A stretch of 9,888 bases of DNA from a virus (taxonomy: Duplodnaviria > Heunggongvirae > Uroviricota > Caudoviricetes): IMG/VR virus record IMGVR_UViG_2529292908_000017, positions 1 to 9,888 of that record; one strand, 5' to 3'. Under the pieces are notes generated by a model. That model saw only the letters and a list, made by a program, of their open reading frames with translations, had not been told where the DNA came from and did not search any database. Both the position numbers and the translations under genes were made by a program. The first letter of the stretch is position 1, and each line of letters starts with the position of its first letter. Below, one piece after another: positions 1 to 9,888 of the stretch.

Positions 1-1242
1 ATGGCGAGAAAAACACACCCATTAACCACAGTGCAGATCAAAGCAGCCAGACCAGCGCAAAAGGAGTACACCCTGCAGGACGGCGGAGGGCTTTTTCTCC
101 TGGTCAAACCGTCTGGATCAAAACTCTGGAGATTTTCCTACTACCGACCATCGGACAAAAAAAGAATATTGCTGAGTTTTGGATCGCTTGAAGATGTTTC
201 CCTGGCTGATGCCAGAAAACGCCGTAGCGAGTACAGGACGTTAATCAGTGCCGGAACTGACCCGCAGGACCACGAGAGGCAAAAAAGAGAGACAGAGGCC
301 CGAAGACAAGGGAACACGTTCGAAAATGTGGCGGCGGCATGGTACCAGGTGAAAATCAGCCAGAATCTGGCCCCCAACACGATTAAAGACATCTGGCGTT
401 CGCTGGATAAATATGTATTCCCGTTCATCGGCAACACGCCAATAGATACCCTCACCGCCCGAAGGTTCGTTGAAGTGCTTACCCCCATCAAGGAGCGCGG
501 CAACCTGGAAACACTCAAGCGGGTTTTACAGCGCGTTAATGAGGTAATGGATTACGCCGCCAACAGTGGGCTGATTGATGCCAATCCGGCTATGAATGTG
601 CGTAAGGCGTTTCCCTCACCTGTAAAAAAACATATGCCAACAATCCGCCCCGAACAGCTGCCGGAGCTTATGCAGGCTTTATCAGTATCGGCAACAGAAC
701 GGCAGACCAGATTACTGATTGAATGGCAGTTACTGACCGTAACCCGTCCCGCCGAAGCGTCATCAACGCGGTGGGATGAAATCAACCTGGACGCGAAGCA
801 ATGGACGATACCTGCCGGACGCATGAAGATGCGCAGGGATCACGTTATCCCGCTTTCCGGTCAGGCTATGGCGGTGCTGGAGGCCATGAAACCAATCAGC
901 CACCACCGCAATTACGTTTTCCCAAGTCTGAAAGACCCACAGCAGCCGATGAACAGCCAGACAGCTAACGCAGCATTGCGGCGTATGGGATTCGCTGGCG
1001 TGCTGGTGTCTCATGGATTACGCGCCATATTCAGCACAGCAGCGAACGAGGAAGGATTCGAGCCGGACGTAATAGAGGCGGCACTTGCCCACGTCGACAC
1101 CAACGAAGTTAGACGGGCATACAACCGGAGCAACTACATAGAAAAACGCATCGTGCTGATGCGCTGGTGGGGCGAATTTGTCGAGGCTGCGGCGACGGGC
1201 GTAACCCTCGCCAGTGGTAAAAGGGGTATCCGAGCCGTGTAG
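1..1242 (+). CDS. int: Tyrosine recombinase / integrase, P4-type (satellite / genomic-island family)
   Basis: 413-aa ORF starting at window base 1. N-terminal arm-type region (GGGLFLLVKPSGSKLWRFSYY) typical of P4-family integrases; C-terminal catalytic region with HGLRAIFST (H-x-x-R) and RAYNRSNY (tyrosine nucleophile region). Recognition by eye, no search. Confidence 0.9.
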   Translation: MARKTHPLTTVQIKAARPAQKEYTLQDGGGLFLLVKPSGSKLWRFSYYRPSDKKRILLSFGSLEDVSLADARKRRSEYRTLISAGTDPQDHERQKRETEARRQGNTFENVAAAWYQVKISQNLAPNTIKDIWRSLDKYVFPFIGNTPIDTLTARRFVEVLTPIKERGNLETLKRVLQRVNEVMDYAANSGLIDANPAMNVRKAFPSPVKKHMPTIRPEQLPELMQALSVSATERQTRLLIEWQLLTVTRPAEASSTRWDEINLDAKQWTIPAGRMKMRRDHVIPLSGQAMAVLEAMKPISHHRNYVFPSLKDPQQPMNSQTANAALRRMGFAGVLVSHGLRAIFSTAANEEGFEPDVIEAALAHVDTNEVRRAYNRSNYIEKRIVLMRWWGEFVEAAATGVTLASGKRGIRAV

Positions 1243-1319
1243 CTGTACAGAAAACCAGTAAAAACTACGAAAACCATGTAAAACCGTCGTATAATTGCAT
1301 CAAATTTAACGACAAGGCC

Positions 1320-1571
1320 GTGAAACATGAAACCGTTAAGATGCAAAAAAATATCAGATGCAATTGCGACGGGCTGCAACTGGCCCTGATGGTTCAGCAT
1401 GAATTTTGGTCAACCTACGATCCGGAGGACAGGACGACGGCCCCATCAAAAAAACAGGTAGTAGATTTTCTGGTATCCCGTGGCGCTTCCAGAAATCTGG
1501 CGGTAAGTATTGATAAGGTCGTACGTCCGGCATCTATGAAGATCGGAGGCAGGCCCAAAAAATGGCGGTAA
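1320..1571 (+). CDS. Hypothetical small protein (83 aa)
   Basis: ORF with AAGG about 10 nt upstream of the ATG, ending 10 nt before a strong intrinsic terminator. A TATAAT hexamer lies at about 1290-1295. No family recognised. Confidence 0.45.
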   Translation: MKHETVKMQKNIRCNCDGLQLALMVQHEFWSTYDPEDRTTAPSKKQVVDFLVSRGASRNLAVSIDKVVRPASMKIGGRPKKWR

Positions 1572-1580
1572 CAATCCTGG

Positions 1581-1606
1581 AAGCGGCAGAAATGCCGCTT
1601 TTTTTA
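1581..1606 (+). terminator. Rho-independent terminator
   Basis: Stem AGCGGCA / TGCCGCT (7 bp) with GAAA loop followed by a T6-7 run, immediately after the 1320..1571 ORF. Confidence 0.7.
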
Positions 1607-1629
1607 TAATTCCATTTCAAATCATCAAT

Positions 1630-1735
1630 ATAAAAAACGGTGTATACCGTTTAAAAACGGTGGGAACTGTTTTTACCCATATCCGATGATTTACCGTATT
1701 TGTCACCGGAATACACCGGATTCACAAGGTAAATC
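1630..1735 (+). promoter_or_regulatory. Putative promoter/operator region upstream of alpA
   Basis: 10-bp direct repeat AAAAACGGTG at 1633-1642 and 1653-1662; inverted half-sites ACGGT-N4-ACCGT at 1637-1650; direct repeat CACCGGA at 1704-1710 and 1714-1720; AAGG RBS at 1726-1729 before the ATG at 1739. Function inferred. Confidence 0.3.
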
Positions 1736-1738
1736 ACG

Positions 1739-1944
1739 ATGGAAGCAATCAGAAAAATTATCTTTCGCCAGGAAGTAAAAAAATTATCCACATCAAGGCA
1801 GACAGCACGCTGCAAAGCATGATCAACGCCGGAGAATTTCCGCAGGGTTTTCGCGTTGGTTTACGCCGTCGCGGATGGTATGAGGATGATGTGTTGGCCT
1901 GGCAGAAAGAACGCGAACAGGAAGCACGCGGAACGGCTGCTTAA
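1739..1944 (+). pseudogene. alpA: AlpA-family (prophage CP4-57-type) HTH regulator, apparently disrupted by a 1-nt frameshift
   Basis: Frame from ATG 1739 reads MEAIRKIIFRQEVKKLSTSRQTARCKA then stops (TGA 1820-1822). The -1 frame continues LQSMINAGEFPQGFRVGLRRRGWYEDDVLAWQKERE to TAA 1942-1944. Joined, they match the AlpA pattern (TG-x-SR-x-T-IY-x-hh-x-G-x-FP ... G-W-x-E-x-D-h-x-x-W). Length 206 nt is not a multiple of 3; shift localised to about 1803-1811. Confidence 0.6.
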
Positions 1945-2092
1945 CGGGTATCACAGATATGACAAACACGAAAAAAGCGGCCCCGATATGGAGCCGCCTT
2001 TCTGAACAATTAACCCGCTGCGCCTTATGTGTATGTGATCCCAAACATAAGCACGGGGATGATAGCCGCTATCAGGCTGGTGGGCAATGCAA

Positions 2093-2266
2093 TCAGTCTG
2101 GTTCAGTTCGTTGCCATACCTGCAATGAGCGCTTTTCCCTATACTCTTTAAGGAATTGCTCAAGGGCAAAAGCACATGGTGCGAATCTTTCTGATTCATG
2201 CTCTATCTTTCTGCGCCGTCTTTTCCGTGCCGGTGATAATGTTTTGGTCAATTCTTTATCGGTCAT
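2093..2266 (-). CDS. Hypothetical small basic protein (57 aa from second ATG; 62 aa from first)
   Basis: Minus-strand ORF MTDKELTKTLSPARKRRRRKIEHESERFAPCAFALEQFLKEYREKRSLQVWQRTEPD, with AGGA 7 nt upstream of the internal ATG (+ coordinates 2264-2266). Composition is protein-like, unlike the overlapping 186-aa + ORF. No homologue recognised. Confidence 0.3.
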   Translation of the reverse strand: MTDKELTKTLSPARKRRRRKIEHESERFAPCAFALEQFLKEYREKRSLQVWQRTEPD

Positions 2267-2692
2267 TGTGTTGTCCTGCATAGCAATACGCCGTAATACC
2301 TCACACCACGGCGCTGGTGATGGTTACTCCTGCTCTTTGGCCTTGCGCCGCTGGCGGCGTTTGATCTCACCTTTAACGGCAGTAACTATAAATTGCGCCT
2401 TGCTTTCACCTTCATCTAAATTTTTTCTAAGTCTGCAACAACATCATGCGGGAATCTGGCATTTAACTGTTGCGACTTATTATTTGTTGAACCTGTTGCC
2501 ATTACTGAATCCTCTCTAAGTTGGTGCGATTCAGTATACACAAAAAAAATTTCAGAGAAAGGCTTGAAGTGCGATTCACTTACTGATAGGTTAAAAACGA
2601 ATGGTGCGATGCACCAAACAACAACGCCCCGCAGTGGTGGCACACATGCAGGGCGTCTAACCACCAACGATAACGAGAGTATCGAGGTAGCT

Positions 2693-2896
2693 ATGAGAAA
2701 TCATACCACACACCCGCAAGGGCGGGACTCGCACGACCTGAATAAATACATCTGGCGTTTTATCGCCCTGAGCACGGCACAACCGCGCGTGATTACCATT
2801 GAGGCCACCAGCGAACAGGAAGCACGCCTGCAATCCCCGGCTGGCTGCGTGATGGTATTCGCTGCCCGTATTCGCCAGGGGTCACATCATGCGTAA
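2693..2896 (+). CDS. Small protein, paralogue A of a tandem pair; possibly Ash / Icd-like family (unverified)
   Basis: ATG 2693 preceded by GAGG (2684-2687). C-terminal motif YIWRF ... EATSEQEARLQSP ... FAARIRQGSHHA is repeated in the next gene, with synonymous third-position differences (CGT/CGC, CGC/CGT). The longer TTG start at 2564 in the ORF track has no credible RBS. Confidence 0.5.
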   Translation: MRNHTTHPQGRDSHDLNKYIWRFIALSTAQPRVITIEATSEQEARLQSPAGCVMVFAARIRQGSHHA

Positions 2897-3575
2897 AAAC
2901 CGCTTGCAAAAAATTATCACGGGGCTGTATGCTTCCCCCGTCGCCCACATGGCGACCGGGTTTAGCAGCCTGAATACATCTGGCGGACAGCCGCCCACAT
3001 CCGATAAGCGGTTTTTTTGTGTCCGTAAACCTACCCATACCCGCATTATGGCGGGGCGTAACGGGGGAGCCTTTGTGCTCGCTGGTTTCCAGATGACCAG
3101 TCTGCTAACCCTGTTACGTCTCGCCACCATGTTTAGCAGCGTAGTAGCGAGACTCCTTAAAATTCATCTGGGAGCCTTTCACATGGCTGTATTCGCACGC
3201 CCTTATTTTGTCTGGCGCTTTATGCAGTGCCTGACAGACAGTATTGCAATATTCACCGTTACCGCTGCCACTGAGCGCGAAGCACGTGCACAGCTGCCGC
3301 ACGCACATCTTATTTTTGTCGCCCGTATTCGCCAGGGGGGGGGAGTCATGCATAAAATACCCTTTGATGTTCTTGTTCATTCTGAAAACGCATTAATCCG
3401 CGCAAAGGAAATGGACGCATTACTACTTAAGTTAATTGATGTGCCGGAAAGTGGCGATGAATCTGATTCAATGATGTTTTCTGCCGTGCGTACGCTATTA
3501 ACGCCTGTTATTAATGAATTAAATACAGTGATGGCAATTCACGAGAATAATAAAGCGCAGCACAACGGAGAATAA
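2889..3575 (+). CDS. Composite ORF: N-terminal segment of unknown nature, then paralogue B (from internal ATG 3183 with GGAG RBS), read through a G9 tract into a 75-aa C-terminal segment
   Basis: Continuous 228-aa ORF; ATG 2889 overlaps the stop of the previous gene (ATGCGTAA). Residues from 3183 (MAVFARPYFVWRF ... TAATEREARAQLP ... FVARIRQGGG) parallel paralogue A. G9 tract at 3335-3343; with G10 the paralogue would end ...QGGGSHA* (compare A: ...QGSHHA*) and a separate ORF would start at ATG 3348. Confidence 0.4.
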   Translation: MRKNRLQKIITGLYASPVAHMATGFSSLNTSGGQPPTSDKRFFCVRKPTHTRIMAGRNGGAFVLAGFQMTSLLTLLRLATMFSSVVARLLKIHLGAFHMAVFARPYFVWRFMQCLTDSIAIFTVTAATEREARAQLPHAHLIFVARIRQGGGVMHKIPFDVLVHSENALIRAKEMDALLLKLIDVPESGDESDSMMFSAVRTLLTPVINELNTVMAIHENNKAQHNGE

Positions 3576-3580
3576 AAAAC

Positions 3581-3880
3581 ATGAAAAATAAAAATTCTGG
3601 CGTTACTGCCAGCGGCCCCGCTCGTCCTGAATTTATGAACGGCGATATTTACCGCGATAAATATGGCGGCATGGTAACGATTAAAGGCGTGGCAGAACGG
3701 CGCATCACCTACCGTCGTGAAGGCTACGAATATGATTGCGTGATGCCTGTTTATCAGTTTCGGCGTGATTTTTCTCTGGTACAGGCAGCGCCCCGCAGTA
3801 AACCAACCAGCAGGGAGAAAGCACGCGCCAATATTCAGGAAATAAAAAAGATGCTTAACGTATTCAGGGGTAAAAAATGA
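3581..3880 (+). CDS. Hypothetical protein (99 aa), translationally coupled to the primase
   Basis: ORF with GGAG upstream; its TGA stop (3878-3880) overlaps the primase ATG (3877-3879) as ATGA. Protein-like composition; family not recognised. Confidence 0.6.
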   Translation: MKNKNSGVTASGPARPEFMNGDIYRDKYGGMVTIKGVAERRITYRREGYEYDCVMPVYQFRRDFSLVQAAPRSKPTSREKARANIQEIKKMLNVFRGKK

Positions 3881-5625
3881 AACTGGCACCGAACGTAAAA
3901 AAACAGCCACGCGGAATAAAACACAAAGACACAGAGGTAATTATTTTCGCGGGTAGTGATGCCTGGTCGCACGCGAAACAATGGCAGGAGCAGGATGGCC
4001 CCGCATCCGGCGATAATGTGCCGCCTGTGTGGCTTGGGCCAAATCAGCTTGCCGAACTTGATGCACTGAAAATTGTTCCGGATGGGAAAAAGCGCGTAAG
4101 GCTGTACCAGGCCGGAGAACTGGATTTGGTGGAGACCAAAAAGATTGGTCAGAAGCTGGCGGCAGCAGATATTCAGGACGCAAATTTTTACCCCGAAGGA
4201 ATGCACGTCCAGAAGTGTGAAAACTGGCGGCGCTATCTGAATGCTGAGCGTGAAAATATTGCCGCAGGGCTTACCATGCCGGAGCAGAAAAATACGCAAC
4301 TGGCACAAATGGCAGACAGTGAGCGCGCGCAGCTGCTTGCCGAGCGCTTTGATGGCGTTTGTGTGCATCCTGAAAGTGAAATCGTTCACGTATGGCGCGG
4401 CGGGGTATGGTGTCCGGTCAGCACAATGGAGCTGAGCCGCGAAATGGTGGCGATCTATTCAGAGCACAGGGCCACTTTCAGCAAGCGCGTAATCAATAAC
4501 GCCGTGGAAGCGTTAAAAGTTATTGCCGAACCAATGGGCGAGCCGTCCGGCGATTTGCTGCCGTTCGCCAATGGTGCGCTTGACCTGAAAACGGGGGAAT
4601 TTTCCCCGCACACGCCGGAGAACTGGATCACCACGCACAACGGCATTGAGTACACGCCACCAGCACCAGGGGAGAACATCCGCGATAACGCGCCAAACTT
4701 TCATAAATGGCTTAAGCACGCAGCCGGAAAAGACCCGCGCAAGATGATGCGTATATGTGCCGCGCTGTACATGATTATGGCGAACCGGTACGACTGGCAG
4801 ATGTTTATTGAGGCCACCGGAGACGGCGGGAGCGGTAAAAGTACATTCACGCACATAGCCAGCCTTCTGGCAGGGAAACAGAACACGGTAAGCGCTGAAA
4901 TGACATCGCTTGATGATGCTGGTGGACGTGCGCAGGTTGTCGGGAGTCGTCTTATCGTCCTGGCTGACCAGCCGAAATATACAGGCGAAGGAACGGGCAT
5001 CAAGAAAATCACGGGCGGTGACCCCGTGGAAATTAACCCGAAATATGAAAAGCGTTTTACGGCGGTAATCAGGGCGGTGGTGCTGGCGACCAACAACAAC
5101 CCGATGATATTCACCGAACGGGCCGGAGGTGTGGCACGTCGTCGCGTGATTTTCCGTTTCGACAATATCGTCAGTGAGGCCGAAAAAGACAGGGAGCTAC
5201 CGGAAAAGATTGCGGCTGAAATCCCTGTGATTATCCGCCGATTACTGGCGAACTTTTCCGCCCCTGAAAAGGCACGGGCTTTACTCATTGAACAGCGTGA
5301 CGGTGATGAAGCACTGGCGATAAAGCAGCAAACGGATCCGGTTATTGAGTTTTGCCAGTTCCTGAATTTTCTGGAGGAAGCGCGCGGCCTGATGATGGGG
5401 GGCGGTGGCGATTCAGTGAAGTACACGACCAGGAACAGCCTTTACCGCGTCTATCTGGCGTTTATGGCATACGCAGGCAGGAGCAAACCGCTAAACGTAA
5501 ATGACTTTGGCAAGGCTATGAAGCCAGCCGCGAAAGTTTACGGACATGAATATATTACGCGGAAAGTTAAGGGAGTAACGCAGACTAACGCAATAACAAC
5601 AGACGATTGCGACGCGTTTTTATAA
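3877..5625 (+). CDS. Phage/plasmid primase-helicase, P4-family C-terminal domain / D5-like SF3 NTPase (satellite pri-rep type)
   Basis: 582-aa ORF with AGGGGT RBS. Walker A P-loop ATGDGGSGKST, followed by motifs typical of D5 / P4-alpha-type helicases (LIVLADQP Walker B-like, VVLATNN). Immediately followed by an iteron array. N-terminal ~300 aa not assigned. Confidence 0.88.
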   Translation: MKLAPNVKKQPRGIKHKDTEVIIFAGSDAWSHAKQWQEQDGPASGDNVPPVWLGPNQLAELDALKIVPDGKKRVRLYQAGELDLVETKKIGQKLAAADIQDANFYPEGMHVQKCENWRRYLNAERENIAAGLTMPEQKNTQLAQMADSERAQLLAERFDGVCVHPESEIVHVWRGGVWCPVSTMELSREMVAIYSEHRATFSKRVINNAVEALKVIAEPMGEPSGDLLPFANGALDLKTGEFSPHTPENWITTHNGIEYTPPAPGENIRDNAPNFHKWLKHAAGKDPRKMMRICAALYMIMANRYDWQMFIEATGDGGSGKSTFTHIASLLAGKQNTVSAEMTSLDDAGGRAQVVGSRLIVLADQPKYTGEGTGIKKITGGDPVEINPKYEKRFTAVIRAVVLATNNNPMIFTERAGGVARRRVIFRFDNIVSEAEKDRELPEKIAAEIPVIIRRLLANFSAPEKARALLIEQRDGDEALAIKQQTDPVIEFCQFLNFLEEARGLMMGGGGDSVKYTTRNSLYRVYLAFMAYAGRSKPLNVNDFGKAMKPAAKVYGHEYITRKVKGVTQTNAITTDDCDAFL

Positions 5626-5636
5626 TTTTTTGCAAT

Positions 5637-5865
5637 GTCTGTCTACCCTGTCTACCTGAGTAAAGAAAAATACATTTAATTCAGTATATTAACTTAGGTA
5701 GACAGCCTTTTTTCACTGTCTACCTACTATCTACCCTCTCTACCTGATTTTACCTGAATCAGACAGGGAGGTAGATACGGGGTAGATAGTGGATAAAAGC
5801 ACTCTACCCCGCTGAAAGCCGCGCCATTACTGGCATGAGAGCCAGTAAGGTAGATAAGGTAGACA
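5637..5865. repeat. Iteron array, putative replication origin
   Basis: About 11 copies of the heptamer GTCTACC / GGTAGA(C/T) in both orientations (e.g. 5641-5647, 5650-5656, 5697-5703, 5718-5724, 5770-5776, 5781-5787, 5849-5855, 5858-5864) around an AT-rich core (about 5657-5695), directly downstream of the primase-helicase gene. Confidence 0.65.
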
Positions 5866-5913
5866 AGGGGAGGCACAACTCAAAACTTTTTAAACGAGGG
5901 GGTAAAAATAAAA

Positions 5914-6171
5914 ATGCGCACATCAGGAAAACTTAATAATCAGAAGAAGCAGCATAACCGCGCCATTGACCTTACAGAGCACTGGCTGAGAGTGGCGATA
6001 AAAATCATCGACCGCAACACGGGGGAAGGATACGCGAAAGCACATCCCGACCTGATAAGCGCATTCATGACCACGGCGGCAGCAAACTTTGCCACGCTGA
6101 CAGAACGGGAGATTGCCGAAGCGGAACAGGTGACAACCATCAACGTTAAAACCGGAGAGCAGACAGCATGA
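5914..6171 (+). CDS. Hypothetical protein (85 aa), coupled to ssb
   Basis: ORF with GAGGGGG upstream; its stop overlaps the next ATG (ATGA at 6168-6171). No family recognised. Confidence 0.5.
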   Translation: MRTSGKLNNQKKQHNRAIDLTEHWLRVAIKIIDRNTGEGYAKAHPDLISAFMTTAAANFATLTEREIAEAEQVTTINVKTGEQTA

Positions 6172-6590
6172 CAGCACAGATAGCGGCTTACGGGCGGCTG
6201 GTGGCTGACCCGCAGTTAAAGACCACCAGCAAAGGGACACAAATGGCGATGGCGAGTATGGCGGTTCCCCTGCCATGCAGCCAGGCAGATGACGGAACGG
6301 CGACGATGTGGTTATCTGTCCTGGCGTTTGGCAGACAGGCCGACGCACTGGCAAAACACCACAAAGGCGAACTCCTGAGCGTGGCGGGTAATATGCAGGT
6401 GAGCCAGTGGACAGGCCAGAACGGCGAAACGCGGCAGGGCTGGCAGGTTATCGCAGACAGTGTAATCAGTGCCAGAACGGCGCGACCGGGCGGCAAAAAA
6501 GGTCAACAGGGGCAGGCTACTGACGCACTGAACAGGGCAAAACAACAGGCGGGAAATGATGATCCGTACGGGGATAACATACCGTTTTAA
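6168..6590 (+). CDS. ssb: Single-stranded DNA-binding protein (SSB-like OB fold with acidic C-terminal tip)
   Basis: 140 aa. N-terminal OB region aligns by eye with E. coli SSB (YGRLVADPQLK vs VGNLGQDPEVR; WLSVLAFGRQADALAKHHKGE vs [21 protein letters not shown]). Gly/Gln-rich linker and C-terminal DDPYGDNIPF resemble the SSB tail DDDIPF. Confidence 0.78.
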   Translation: MTAQIAAYGRLVADPQLKTTSKGTQMAMASMAVPLPCSQADDGTATMWLSVLAFGRQADALAKHHKGELLSVAGNMQVSQWTGQNGETRQGWQVIADSVISARTARPGGKKGQQGQATDALNRAKQQAGNDDPYGDNIPF

Positions 6591-6606
6591 GCAACGAGTA
6601 ACAGAG

Positions 6607-6628
6607 GCCGGAGCAATCCGGCTTTTAT
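6607..6628 (+). terminator. Rho-independent terminator after ssb
   Basis: Stem GCCGGA / TCCGGC with GCAA loop followed by TTTTAT. Confidence 0.65.
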
Positions 6629-6861
6629 CAGTTGAGTCCGTCACACTACGCAAAAAAAAGCCGGAATATTCCGACCCTTTCATCACCAAAGAGAATAATT
6701 TATGTCTTTGAACTTGTAACGCTGTACAGAATGACACGTAACGCCGGATAAATAAACGAAGATTGAAACTTTGCACACTATTGCATAGCAATGCATAAAG
6801 ATGCCAAACAAGGCAGATGATAAAATTAACGCGACACTTTTACTAAGTATTAAGAGGTTAT

Positions 6862-7902
6862 ATGAGTGATTTATATTCGCCAGCCATGTTAATACAGGTT
6901 GTTAATGCCGAAGATATTCAATGGCAGATTAATTCTTTATTTATAAACCTGTTTTTTAAGCGAGTCGTTACATTTGAGACGCGGGATATTGCGCTTGATA
7001 TTATTGACGATCCAGACATCCCGATGGCTGCATTTTGTTCCCCTATGGTTGGTAGTAAAGTCTCACGCGATGAAGGCTACGAATCAAAAGTAATTCGCCC
7101 TGGCTATATGAAGCCAAAAAGTAGTATCGACCCAAATAAAATAGCCGTTCGTCAACCAGGCGTATCACCTGAACAATTCAATGCATATTCATCACGCAGT
7201 TTCAAAATAAAGCGAGCGTTAGTAAGACAAGCGCAGGCAATTCGTGCGCGTATTGAGTGGCTTGCTGTTCAGGCGGTTACAACGGGGAAAAATATCATTG
7301 AAGGCGATGGAATTGAACGTTATGAACTGGACTGGAATATAAAACCACAAAATATTATCACGCAGTCCGGCGGCACGGAGTGGAGCGGTAGAGATTTATC
7401 AACATTTGATCCAAACGATGACATCGAAGAGTACGCAGAAATCAGCGAAGGTACTACAAATATCATCGTAATGGGCCGCAACGTATGGAAAAAATACCGC
7501 GCCTTTAAAGCAGTAAAAGATTGCCTTGATACTCGACGGGGATCTAATTCCATTCTTGAAACGGCCCTGAAAAATCTTGGGGATTCTGTAAGCTTCAAGG
7601 GTTACGTTGGCGATGTTGCTATTGTGGTATATAGCGGACGTTATACCGACGAGGACGGCAAAGAAAAATATTTCCTTGATCCTGATTTGATGGTGCTTGG
7701 CAACACATCATTACAGGGCATCGTTGCCTACGGTGGCATTCAGGATCCTGAGTTAATCAGAATGGGGCTGACTAAAGCCGAACTTGCGCCGAAAAATTAC
7801 ATCGTACCAGGTGATCCGGCTATTGAATATGTGCAGACGCACAGCGCACCGCAACCAATACCGGCCCGCATCAATCGTTTTGTTACCGTTCGCATTGGTT
7901 AA
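6862..7902 (+). CDS. Major capsid protein, phage lambda gpE family
   Basis: 346 aa with AAGAGG RBS. Long colinear matches to remembered lambda gpE: NIITQSGGTEWSGRDLSTFDPNDDIEEYA (lambda NITQSGGTEWSKRDKSTYDPTDDIEAYA); FKAVKDCLDTRRGSNSILETALKNLGDSVSFKGYVGDVAIVVYSGRY ... MVLGNT (lambda FKAVKEKLDTRRGSNSELETAVKDLGKAVSYKGMYGDVAIVVYSGQY ... MVLGNT). Confidence 0.9.
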   Translation: MSDLYSPAMLIQVVNAEDIQWQINSLFINLFFKRVVTFETRDIALDIIDDPDIPMAAFCSPMVGSKVSRDEGYESKVIRPGYMKPKSSIDPNKIAVRQPGVSPEQFNAYSSRSFKIKRALVRQAQAIRARIEWLAVQAVTTGKNIIEGDGIERYELDWNIKPQNIITQSGGTEWSGRDLSTFDPNDDIEEYAEISEGTTNIIVMGRNVWKKYRAFKAVKDCLDTRRGSNSILETALKNLGDSVSFKGYVGDVAIVVYSGRYTDEDGKEKYFLDPDLMVLGNTSLQGIVAYGGIQDPELIRMGLTKAELAPKNYIVPGDPAIEYVQTHSAPQPIPARINRFVTVRIG

Positions 7903-7911
7903 GGGGGAGCA

Positions 7912-8253
7912 ATGGCTACTCATTACACTGAACTCATGGCTGGCACTGAAGCACTGGTTACTACGTTGGGGATATTTTCAGCTAATAAAGGGGTAATTCC
8001 TGCATTTACGCCACTGATGCAAGAAGATGCAACTGGTGCACTGGTGGTATGGGATGGAACGAGCGCAGGCAAAGCTGTTTATGTTTCCGCTGTACAAATC
8101 GATACAGCGACAAAAACGCAGGCTCAGGTTTATAAAACCGGCGTCTTAAATGTTGATGCTCTGAACTGGCCTGAGTCTGTAACACAACTATCAGCAAAAG
8201 TTGCTGCGTTTGTTGGCTCAGGTATTTCTGTTCAGCCGCTGGCACGTGTGTGA
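7912..8253 (+). CDS. Head decoration protein, phage lambda gpD family
   Basis: 113 aa with GGGGGAG RBS. Matches remembered gpD: TPLMQEDATGALVVWDGTSAGKAV (lambda [24 protein letters not shown]), YKTGVLNVDALNWPE (YKSGTFRYEDVLWPE), AAFVGSGISV (TAFAGTAISIV). Confidence 0.85.
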   Translation: MATHYTELMAGTEALVTTLGIFSANKGVIPAFTPLMQEDATGALVVWDGTSAGKAVYVSAVQIDTATKTQAQVYKTGVLNVDALNWPESVTQLSAKVAAFVGSGISVQPLARV

Positions 8254-8262
8254 GGTACGAGA

Positions 8263-8607
8263 ATGATTGAAAGAGATAGTCAGCTACGAGAGCTATTAGA
8301 TATCGATGACAAAATGAGTTTAAGCGAGCGCCTTGTTGATATGGATCAGGTAGTGGAGCTTACAACCCTTAGCCGTCGCACATTGCTAAACCTTGAGGCT
8401 CGCGGAGAGTTCCCCGAACGCGTACAGGTTACGAAAGGGCGCAAGGCATGGTATTTAAGCGAGGTTGTTGCGTGGATTAACAACATTCCGCGCGCATCAA
8501 ATTATTGCCTTGTTCCCACCCCCGAAAAACCTGATGCGGCGTTATGCCTCAAGATTGAACGCGCCAGGCGTAATGCCCTGAAAGGACGCAATAAGTTGAT
8601 TGGTTGA
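8263..8607 (+). CDS. AlpA/MerR-like helix-turn-helix DNA-binding protein (114 aa)
   Basis: GAGG RBS. Central segment VVELTTLSRRTLLNLEARGEFPERVQVTKGRKAWYLSEVVAWI fits the AlpA / excisionase-type HTH pattern, with N- and C-terminal extensions. Lies between the decoration gene and cos. Confidence 0.65.
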   Translation: MIERDSQLRELLDIDDKMSLSERLVDMDQVVELTTLSRRTLLNLEARGEFPERVQVTKGRKAWYLSEVVAWINNIPRASNYCLVPTPEKPDAALCLKIERARRNALKGRNKLIG

Positions 8608-8631
8608 TGAAATTAGGGCCCGTTCTGGCTG

Positions 8632-8830
8632 GCGGGTCCTTTCCGGCGATCCGGCAGGCTACGGGGCGGCGACCTCGCGGTTTTTCGCTATTTATGAGCC
8701 TTTTCAGGGGGGTGGTGGTGGTTTTGTTGTTTGATCTATCTTTATGAATGAAAAGGGAAAGATGCAAGCAATACACCAACCTGAAGCAGTAATTAAGTTG
8801 GTGTATTAATGAAATCTCATCTGATGAACA
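8632..8830 (+). other. cos site 1 (+ orientation): lambda-like cosQ/cosN (cosN 8664-8675, GGGCGGCGACCT) followed by a divergent cosB-like region up to the terS start
   Basis: GCGGGTCCTTTCCGGCGATCCGGCAGGCTACG-GGGCGGCGACCT-CGCGGTTTTTCGCTATTTATGA is near-identical to the remembered lambda cos junction. Downstream lacks lambda R-site-like GAAACGACA elements but has an 11-bp perfect inverted repeat (8770-8780 / 8797-8807). Confidence 0.75.
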
Positions 8831-8837
8831 AAAAAAC

Positions 8838-9350
8838 ATGGCGAAAAGCTGCCGTGTAAGTGCGACAGCGTTCGACAAGTGGGGAGTAACTCCCGTTGAG
8901 CGTAAAGGCCGTGAGGCGTTTTATGATGTTGCCAGCGTGATAGAAAATAGGGTTAACAATGCAATTAGCCAGCTTATAAACGACAAAGGCGAGATTGACG
9001 ATGATGAACTTTTACGAGTCAGGATCAGATTACTGACAGCACAGGCAGAGGCGCAGGAACTTAAAAACGATCGCGATCGCGGTGACGTGATTGATACTGA
9101 GTTTTGCCTGTACGCGCTTTCAAAGCTGGCGAGTCAGATTTCATCAATCATGGACAGCCTCCCGCTTACTATGCAAAGGAGCTTCCCACAGATTACCCCC
9201 GCCATGCTGGATAGGCTTAAAAGGGAAGTGGTTAAAGCCTGTAATGCCAGTGCCAGAGTTGCCGACAACCTCCCACAGATACTGGCTGATTACTTGAAAG
9301 AAACAACCGGAAACGTACCGGAAAAGTTGCTACAGAAGAAAGGCGAGTAA
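8838..9350 (+). CDS. Terminase small subunit, lambda Nu1 family, with divergent N-terminal DNA-binding region
   Basis: 170 aa. C-terminal two-thirds matches remembered Nu1: LTAQAEAQELKNDRDRGDVIDTEFCLYALSKLASQISSIMDSLPLTMQRSFPQ (lambda LTRAQADAQELKNARDSAEVVETAFCTFVLSRIAGEIASILDGLPLSVQRRFPE). N-terminal ~45 aa only loosely similar. An upstream ATG at 8824 (MNKKTW...) is out of frame by 1 nt across an A7 tract. Confidence 0.85.
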   Translation: MAKSCRVSATAFDKWGVTPVERKGREAFYDVASVIENRVNNAISQLINDKGEIDDDELLRVRIRLLTAQAEAQELKNDRDRGDVIDTEFCLYALSKLASQISSIMDSLPLTMQRSFPQITPAMLDRLKREVVKACNASARVADNLPQILADYLKETTGNVPEKLLQKKGE

Positions 9351-9369
9351 CAGACGCGCAATTATTGAA

Positions 9370-9580
9370 CAAAACTGAGAAACGACATGAAAGCGTCATA
9401 AATCGCCATTTTAGATGATTACCGTGTCGTTTCTTTTTATTGTGTATCTATTTAAAAACAAATAGTTATGTTCGAGAAGTACCGACATGCTTTTTCCAGA
9501 AAATTTTTCATAAACAGATAAAAACCGCGAGGTCGCCGCCCCGTAACGGGTCCATAATTCCAGGAAGGACCCGACGACAC
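9370..9580 (-). other. cos site 2 (inverted): cosN at 9530-9541 with a lambda-like cosB (R3 / IHF-I1 / R2 / R1-like elements) on the terS-proximal side
   Basis: The reverse complement reads ...CCCGTTACG-GGGCGGCGACCT-CGCGGTTTTTATCTGTTTATGAAAAATTTTCTGG ... CGAACATAACTATTTGTTTTTAAATAGATAC ... AAAGAAACGACACGG ... CATGTCGTTTCTCAG, paralleling the remembered lambda left end (cosN, I1 IHF site CGTCATAACTTAATGTTTTTATTTAAAATACC, R2 GGAAACGACAGG, R1 CTGTCGTTTCC). No terminase gene follows in this orientation. Confidence 0.7.
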
Positions 9581-9606
9581 CAGACAATCAGAACGATGGG
9601 TGCACA

Positions 9607-9888
9607 ATGACAGAAGCCGAAATACTGGGATTAATCCGCCGTGCTGGTGGAATCAGCCAGCAGACTGACGAACAGGCCACGCAGCCGGACAGCGTGACAG
9701 CCGAAAATTATGCGCGTGTTGTTGCTGAGGTGATGCGCCGTGATGGTATCCAGCTTAATGATGTGGATATGCGCAACATACGGATCCGCGTTCTTGAAAT
9801 GCTGGCCTACCGTCGCCGCGTGCAGACGTACAGGGAAAAAGCAAAAATTACGTACCACTGGAAGAAGCCGGAGCGGTTACGGCGGTAA
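9607..9888 (+). CDS. Hypothetical protein (93 aa)
   Basis: Complete ORF ending at the last base of the window (TAA 9886-9888). Weak RBS. No family recognised; Arg-rich C-terminus. Confidence 0.45.
   Translation: MTEAEILGLIRRAGGISQQTDEQATQPDSVTAENYARVVAEVMRRDGIQLNDVDMRNIRIRVLEMLAYRRRVQTYREKAKITYHWKKPERLRR

Follow-up and report, generated by a model that had tools for sequence, protein, structure and literature searches.

The stretch of DNA considered here (9,888 nucleotides, IMG/VR virus record IMGVR_UViG_2529292908_000017; hereafter the window) carries an integrase gene (int) at its left end, the regulator gene alpA, a P4-family primase gene followed by an iteron origin, ssb, homologues of the phage lambda major capsid (E) and head decoration (D) proteins, a gene for a second helix-turn-helix (HTH) protein and, toward the right end, a gene for a Nu1-type small terminase (TerS) flanked by two lambda-like cos sites. 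An earlier note, made from the sequence alone, had listed a P4-type integrase, alpA, a P4-family primase with iterons, ssb, homologues of E, D and Nu1 and a lambda-type cos, and every one of these was found in its place. The main genes are all on the + strand, with int co-oriented with the rest, an arrangement that counts among the criteria for a phage-inducible chromosomal island (PICI). Very probably the window covers the genes of a classical Gram-negative PICI that belongs to the EcCICFT073/EcCIED1a type and is inserted in an E. coli-type chromosome at tRNA-Pro/yejM-yejO.

In SatelliteFinder the PICI core consists of an integrase, a regulator, a primase-replicase (pri-rep), a capsid morphogenesis gene and terS (PMC10085698). 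Judged by the Fillol-Salom 2018 criteria and by this component list, the window has five components out of five, the capsid being scored with the Pfam profile Phage_cap_E and not with SatelliteFinder's own. The P4-type tyrosine integrase (413 residues; 1-1242, +) matches Pfam Arm-DNA-bind_3, Phage_int_M and Phage_integrase and NCBIfam PRK09692 (552 bits); next to it, as in other PICIs, lies alpA (1738-1944, +), the PICI master activator gene, which encodes 68 residues when intact and whose remnant in the window matches phrog_2790/66 (excisionase/regulator). The island measures ~10.5 kb, within the 8-15 kb set for PICIs, and neither it nor its flanks hold tail, holin, portal or head-tail connector genes.

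Where does the island sit? An exact-protein look-up with the primase led to a 450-kb contig (NCBI AIFX01000059.1, assembly GCA_000249635.2; L015), of which positions 6125-16012 are 100% identical to the window. To the left are yejM and tRNA-Pro(ggg), the latter 218 bp upstream of the window; to the right, after ~650 bp, come the autotransporter gene yejO, narP and ccmH. The satellite interpretation in the earlier note is borne out by this setting: the island lies between tRNA-Pro and yejO, and a search of the island and of 6-10 kb of each genomic flank for the complete prophage that the same note had allowed for turned up no terL and no portal, protease, tail or lysis genes. Two pairs of direct repeats are nested around the island. 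The inner pair, TTTTAGTTATACGTTT(A/G)GTTATACGG (L015:6037-6062 and 16494-16519, 10,457 bp apart), is the attachment (att) core published for yejM-site PICIs (TAGTTATACG-type), a shared att site being a further PICI criterion; this core is present in the source contig and not in the window itself, because the window begins at the int start codon and ends with the stop codon of the final open reading frame (ORF). The outer pair (L015:5885-5916 and 16572-16603, 10,687 bp apart, 17 identical bases) is the 3′ end of tRNA-Pro(ggg), and because it coincides with the end of the tRNA gene the true crossover may fall within that gene; reference PICIs remapped to tRNA genes are mentioned in bioRxiv 10.1101/2022.07.18.500453. 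A tRNA scan of the window found none.

The earlier note went further and took the combination of E, D and TerS to be distinct, on the premise that described E. coli PICIs lack capsid genes. That premise is wrong: in EcCICFT073 a capsid gene (c1499) precedes a head decoration gene (c1500), E before D, and there are two cos sites (PMC6092414); 21 of 29 reference Gram-negative PICIs have a capsid gene (bioRxiv 10.1101/2022.07.18.500453); and some Gram-negative PICIs carry a terS homologue (PMC6092414). The att site and att core of the window are those of four yejM-site PICIs, EcCIATCC25922, EcCIED1a.1, EcCI11128 and EcCI11368.1, listed in Table S1 of PMC6092414 (2018), and EcCIED1a is named a prototypical classical PICI by the paper on capsid-forming PICIs (cf-PICIs). 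The yejM islands of E. coli Nissle 1917 and ATCC 25922 also carry capsid and decoration genes and a 180-residue “terminase small subunit”. Because the same layout is already present in a published PICI family, the case for novelty fails; the island is an ordinary family member at a catalogued att site.

The closest studied system is EcCICFT073 (CFT073 1377930-1388654), the prototype of Gram-negative PICIs (Fillol-Salom 2018 ISME J, 2019 Mol Cell), whose genes run int, HTH (alpA), YlcI/YnfO, Icd-like, small ORFs, DUF4222, primase, hypothetical, SSB, (perC), capsid, decoration, a 137-residue ORF, RppA (144 residues, c1503) and a 93-residue ORF. The window follows this order from int to the 93-residue ORF and shares the iteron origin and the two convergent cos sites, one core per orientation, flanking the packaging gene; the primases are ~90% identical and the capsid proteins 55%. 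The two islands differ in integrase and att site (ycfD-phoQ in EcCICFT073, tRNA-Pro/yejM here), perC is absent from the window, and the 137-residue hypothetical protein that follows D in EcCICFT073 is replaced by an AlpA-family HTH protein. The one real difference is that a full-length Nu1-type TerS of 180 residues, with no detectable similarity to RppA, fills the RppA slot.

The terS gene and its two cos sites

When intact, terS (8809-9350, +) encodes 180 residues that match Phage_Nu1 (PF07471) at 81.3 bits, against a cutoff of 30, and phrog_57 at 166 bits, which places the protein in the Nu1 family and supplies the packaging-redirection gene expected of a PICI. The intact Nissle copy, 98% identical to that of the window, can be aligned from residue 6 to residue 166 with residues 3-180 of lambda Nu1, C-terminus included (35% identity, E 2e-34), and the C-terminal 91 residues of TerS are 44% identical to TerS of a lambdoid prophage. 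TerS is thus a full-length Nu1 homologue that has kept the central and C-terminal regions, with a divergent N-terminal winged-HTH region. In lambda Nu1, the central and C-terminal regions carry oligomerisation and binding of the large terminase, TerL (PMC9026076).

TerS could nevertheless work as Rpp does, that is, as an obligatory heterodimer formed with the helper TerS through the DNA-binding domains, leaving the helper protein in place. It occupies the rpp slot exactly, between cos1 and cos2; Rpp is thought to derive from TerS (PMC6739421); and transfer of EcCICFT073 depends on the helper TerS (PMC6092414). An Rpp-like mode of action is nonetheless unlikely, though it deserves more weight than any other alternative considered here: Rpp proteins are 144-153 residues long, whereas the island TerS retains the central and C-terminal Nu1 regions and aligns up to residue 180 of lambda Nu1, whose C-terminal end carries TerL binding. 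The comparison with RppA by BLASTP gives E 3.4, no detectable similarity, and a PDB search with TerS returned no RppC match at E up to 10 and no meaningful match of any kind, while RppA, used as a control, finds RppC in the PDB at E 5e-31. Membership of TerS in the Rpp family was rejected on the BLASTP value against RppA and the missing RppC match in the PDB. A literature search found no experimental study of a Nu1-type PICI TerS beyond the 2018 and 2019 papers, and the 2022 review covers Rpp only.

The reading frame of terS in the window as deposited is broken: a run of seven adenines (8830-8836), where an intact gene has eight, leaves a 170-residue ORF (8838-9350). The same kind of lesion, A7 versus A8 at ~1770-1776, breaks alpA, leaving open an ORF of 41 residues (1819-1944). 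Are these genes dead? The window was compared with two independent sister contigs, L016 from an NCBI assembly and L017 from a Logan assembly: identity is 99.96% with 0 mismatches, and the window differs from them only by four single-base contractions in A/T runs of 6-8 bases, at 1777, 2421, 6652 and 8830. Three of the four break genes (alpA, terS and a YlcI/YnfO-like gene), and both sisters have the 68-residue alpA, also intact in Nissle, and the 180-residue terS; AASIYF020000020.1 is such an intact sister. The chromosomal flanks in L015 show the same type of homopolymer difference. Because the sisters differ only by single-base homopolymer expansions and the flanks err alike, the alpA and terS frameshifts are most likely homopolymer assembly errors, and real pseudogenisation of the two genes was rejected on these grounds. 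Assembly GCA_000249635.2 as a whole looks like a case of systematic homopolymer under-calling.

Two cos sites flank terS, both with lambda-like cosQ-like and cosN elements and a 12-nt cosN identical to that of lambda; the lambda-type cos of the earlier note is therefore present, but as an inverted pair and not as a single site. The first, cos1 (8633-8808, +), combines a cosQ-like GGGTCCTTTCC with the cosN core GGGCGGCGACCT (8664-8675) and a cosB that extends up to terS and is island-specific: the 100 nt to the right of its cosN are identical to a MEW-type island at 85 of 100 positions and to phage cos at only 49-55. The second, cos2 (9454-9573, −; core 9530-9541), is inverted relative to cos1, with a phage-like cosB side facing terS, in which 73 of 100 nt agree with the cos of the icd prophage in CFT073 and 64 of 100 with lambda.

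The cos region varies among relatives. The cosB side of cos2 in EcCICFT073 is not phage-like (49/100, unlike the 73/100 of the window), and the MEW-type relatives (L001, L006-L012) lack the ~180-bp cos2 stretch (window 9351-9534) and have cos1 only, while the window, Nissle and EcCICFT073 have both sites. At the position of lambda R3 (window 8710-8725), cos1 of the TerS type reads GGTGGTGGTGGTTTTG and cos1 of the RppA-type EcCICFT073 (L004) reads CACCACCACCAC, a complementary motif; this may be one recognition element in opposite orientations. Directly upstream of the full-length terS start lies a perfect 9-bp inverted repeat, TACACCAAC...GTTGGTGTA (8779-8808), partly conserved in MEW-type islands, which could be a candidate TerS-binding or regulatory site.

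Capsid genes, relatives and distribution

The major capsid homologue (346 residues; 6862-7902, +; Phage_cap_E PF03864, 141.9 bits), the counterpart of c1499, is 55% identical to it and supplies the capsid component; it is complete, its residues 12-346 aligning with 8-341 of lambda E (3 gaps, 43% identity). The decoration protein (113 residues; 7912-8253, +; HDPD PF02924, 60.2 bits), the counterpart of c1500, is likewise complete and 41% identical to lambda D. For both E and D, dN/dS is 0.08, the relative used for the measurement being 84% (E) and 96% (D) identical in amino acids, compared with ~0.2 for terS and ~0.25 for the primase. E and D are conserved under strong purifying selection and clearly do something.

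Do these genes make the island a builder of its own small capsids? A PICI backbone with genes for a capsid protein, a decoration protein and TerS recalls the cf-PICIs, such as EcCIEDL933, which have a related int-alpA-rep backbone with capsid and terS genes. The head module of cf-PICIs is fuller: they have their own portal, protease, head-tail connectors, TerL and HNH, and form small capsids. No portal, protease, head-tail adaptor or connector, TerL or HNH gene occurs in the window or its flanks; cf-PICI capsids and TerS proteins form clades separate from the PICI ones (PMC10085698); and EcCICFT073, whose E/D pair is the same, travels in capsids of phage size (PMC6092414). A cf-PICI, or a reduced form of one, is accordingly very improbable.

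The relatives were collected by megablast from 5,426 complete E. coli genomes, which show the window to be a mosaic of known islands. Bases 1-2354, int among them, match the Nissle 1917 island at yejM with 99.2% identity; bases 3321-9351 are 97% identical to the island of E. coli MEW; and bases 8632-9888 (cos1-terS-cos2-orf93) are again 97% identical to Nissle. The middle, from the primase to the HTH gene, matches the MEW-type island at 97% but the Nissle island at only 65-89%. Nissle 1917 is among the top matches, and for the ATCC 25922 record the overall match is the same (93.7% identity across 72% of the window). The E-D-HTH-cos-terS module is present, at ≥80% query cover, in 263 of the 5,426 genomes; it is found at the yejM and cspD-clpS sites, where all relatives are directly flanked by chromosomal genes. 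A Nu1-type PICI terS occurs in 766 of the genomes and rppA in 97, a ~8-fold difference obtained with near-identity searches that would miss rppC; the studied Rpp route may thus be a minority packaging strategy among E. coli PICIs.

None of 50,697 phage records holds the module. A query running from E to orf93 gave only a 289-nt, 66% match to the lambda E gene, and the module is therefore not a recent loan from any sequenced phage. These data also bear on the view that the locus is a degraded lambdoid prophage that has kept only E, D, Nu1 and cos. Homologues of these three proteins and a lambda-identical 12-nt cosN are what such a remnant would leave; but E, D and TerS share only 35-43% of their residues with their lambda counterparts and E precedes D; this compact module, identically bounded, is seen again at several att sites across hundreds of genomes; purifying selection acts on it and the phage collection lacks it; and the flanks, as described above, hold no further prophage genes. 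The chance that the island is a prophage remnant is very small.

One relative has a different setting. In E. coli STEC316 (L014, NZ_CP041431.1 3490453-3500333), a lambdoid prophage carries the E-D-HTH-terS-orf93 module within its portal gene, together with a different integrase and a BRO-N gene, the configuration of a helper-embedded satellite. Helper-embedded satellites (e.g., Eco567.11capE; bioRxiv 10.1101/2022.07.18.500453) have the same module content; the island in the window is chromosomal, at tRNA-Pro, instead.

Between the decoration gene and cos1 lies the gene for the second AlpA-family HTH protein (114 residues; 8263-8607, +; PF05930; phrog_2790, 128.8 bits; PDB 8c3t, “AlpA family phage regulatory protein”, E 5e-10). 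EcCICFT073 and Nissle have an unrelated 137-residue hypothetical protein in this position. A late regulator, an excisionase and a cos accessory factor are candidate roles.

Replication, immunity-like and accessory genes

The P4-family primase-replicase (pri-rep, 582 residues; 3877-5625, +) contains D5_N, DUF5906 and Pox_D5 domains and matches phrog_864 (568 bits) and TIGR01613 (109.6 bits). It is followed by the origin (5639-5866), located between the primase gene and an 85-residue ORF and carrying CTGTCTACC iterons in both orientations, the primase-then-iteron order being that expected of a PICI. With up to 1 mismatch, CTGTCTACC is found 11 times in the window, 8 of them in 5639-5866, compared with 1.09 expected window-wide; none of 200 shuffles reaches 11. 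The 85-residue protein (phrog_1231; 5914-6171, +) is conserved in all relatives and is followed by SSB (6168-6590, +; PF00436, 57.4 bits).

The region between alpA and the primase gene, given in the earlier note as small ORFs, includes a group of elements that resembles an immunity module. A YlcI/YnfO-family small protein is encoded at 2325-2503 (−), identified from the PGAP annotation at the homologous position in E. coli MEW and CFT073; its gene is the third broken by a contraction, T6 versus T7 at 2421, and a 59-residue gene is called in L017. An ORF similar to host cell division inhibitors (Icd-like; 2564-2896, +; NF033153 phage_ICD_like, 67.8 bits; phrog_6196) precedes an a1/b1-type target of C4 antisense RNA (2927-2976, +), which scores just below threshold (RF03163, 45.5 bits versus a gathering cutoff of 46.7, E 4e-9), and the C4, or P4-CI-type, immunity antisense RNA itself (3044-3131, +), which matches the full Rfam model RF01695 at 72.7 bits (gathering cutoff 45, E 4.7e-13). 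The C4 locus is overlapped by a 228-residue ORF (2889-3575, +), called at the identical length in sister L017, in which PHROG matches mark residues ~103-161 as another Icd-like segment and a further part as phrog_2196. In the same stretch (window 2927-3131, +) a sub-threshold isrK match lies upstream of the C4 RNA, and C4 and isrK matches are reported in several Gram-negative PICIs (bioRxiv 10.1101/2022.07.18.500453). The placement of a C4 RNA and its a1/b1 target among two Icd-like ORFs resembles P1 immI or the P4 immunity module. A DUF4222 protein (3581-3880, +; PF13973, 85.6 bits) completes the region.

These genes raise the question of whether the island is a satellite of the P4 kind. Its P4-type integrase, alpA, P4-family primase, Icd/Kil-like ORF and CI/C4-type RNA are all shared with satellite P4. 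Unlike P4, the window has E, D and Nu1 homologues and cos sites of the lambda and not the P2 type; no homologues of Sid, Psu or Delta were found among the ORFs scanned, a scan that left out some small ORFs; and the island is co-linear with EcCICFT073. A P4-like satellite is therefore exceedingly unlikely, and the island is best placed among the classical PICIs.

At the right end, a conserved 93-residue protein (phrog_1561; 9607-9888, +), 86% identical to the product of the last ORF of EcCICFT073, is encoded by the last island gene in all relatives. NCBIfam gave no family name for E, D, TerS, the HTH protein or orf93; a PADLOC scan of the unknown ORFs together with E, D and the HTH protein returned no defence-system match; and a promoter and terminator scan of the window gave counts within shuffle expectation and no operon map.

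How the island may be packaged

By analogy with the EcCICFT073 family, a lambdoid helper phage would switch on alpA, the island would excise by means of its own integrase and replicate from the iteron origin with its own primase-replicase and SSB, and the resulting concatemers would be cut at the lambda-type cos and packaged cos-to-cos into virions made by the helper. The size of the island suits such a route: four copies of 10,457 bp (41.8 kb) fit a lambda-size head and five (52.3 kb) exceed the 48.5 kb of lambda, in agreement with the published packaging of EcCICFT073 in phage-sized capsids (PMC6092414).

How might the terminase be redirected to island DNA? From its sequence, TerS is predicted to bind the island-specific cosB at cos1 and to recruit the helper TerL via its lambda-like C-terminus; it would thereby compete with the phage TerS, diverting terminase from phage to island DNA. 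Because cos2 has a phage-like cosB, unmodified helper terminase could start there, making the inverted site a second point of entry. This scheme, of TerS acting at cos1 with recruited helper TerL, in competition with the phage protein, and of cos2 entered by the helper enzyme, is somewhat favoured. It differs from EcCICFT073, in which Rpp forms a heterodimer with TerS, in that the island protein would replace TerS. In concept it resembles the S. aureus pathogenicity islands (SaPIs), whose small terminase redirects helper TerL (PMC6739421); SaPIs package by the headful pac route with a TerS of an unrelated family, whereas the window has a cos system with a Nu1 homologue, the function of which is inferred.

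Several observations tell against the PICI assignment or the packaging scheme built on it. Membership was judged by published criteria and a component list, not by SatelliteFinder's own models. Real frameshifts in alpA, terS and the YlcI-like gene would mean a dead island. No phmmer match links the N-terminal domain of TerS to the solved Nu1 DNA-binding domain, so the DNA-binding fold of TerS is assigned solely from the BLASTP alignment. Induction, helper identity, packaging and the TerS-cosB interaction are inferences, none of them experimental; helper induction, packaging in helper virions, high-frequency transfer and helper interference have been demonstrated for EcCICFT073 only, not for the island in the window. 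Finally, the E/D pair is dispensable for EcCICFT073 transfer.

If E and D can be deleted from EcCICFT073 with transfer and interference unchanged (PMC6092414), why are they under such strong selection? After the 2018 and 2019 papers, a literature search found no further work on what E and D do in PICIs. Co-assembly of the two proteins with the helper portal, scaffold and protease is a plausible candidate role. A more ambitious and decidedly speculative proposal, one that is probably not correct in full, is that in TerS-type PICIs the Nu1 homologue replaces the helper TerS at cos1, cos2 serves as a back-up entry, and E and D are built into transducing particles together with those three helper proteins.

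The layout described here is that of a textbook Gram-negative PICI, the type SatelliteFinder is designed to detect, and has little discovery value in itself. The points left for the specialist, a Nu1-type TerS commoner than Rpp and a conserved E/D pair, are family-wide and not specific to the window. That E and D are selected, yet deletion-silent in EcCICFT073, makes their function a testable question for the whole family; and, if the speculative proposal were true, TerS-type E. coli PICIs would package by a mechanism unlike the studied Rpp route, and their E/D pair would not be a dispensable relic.

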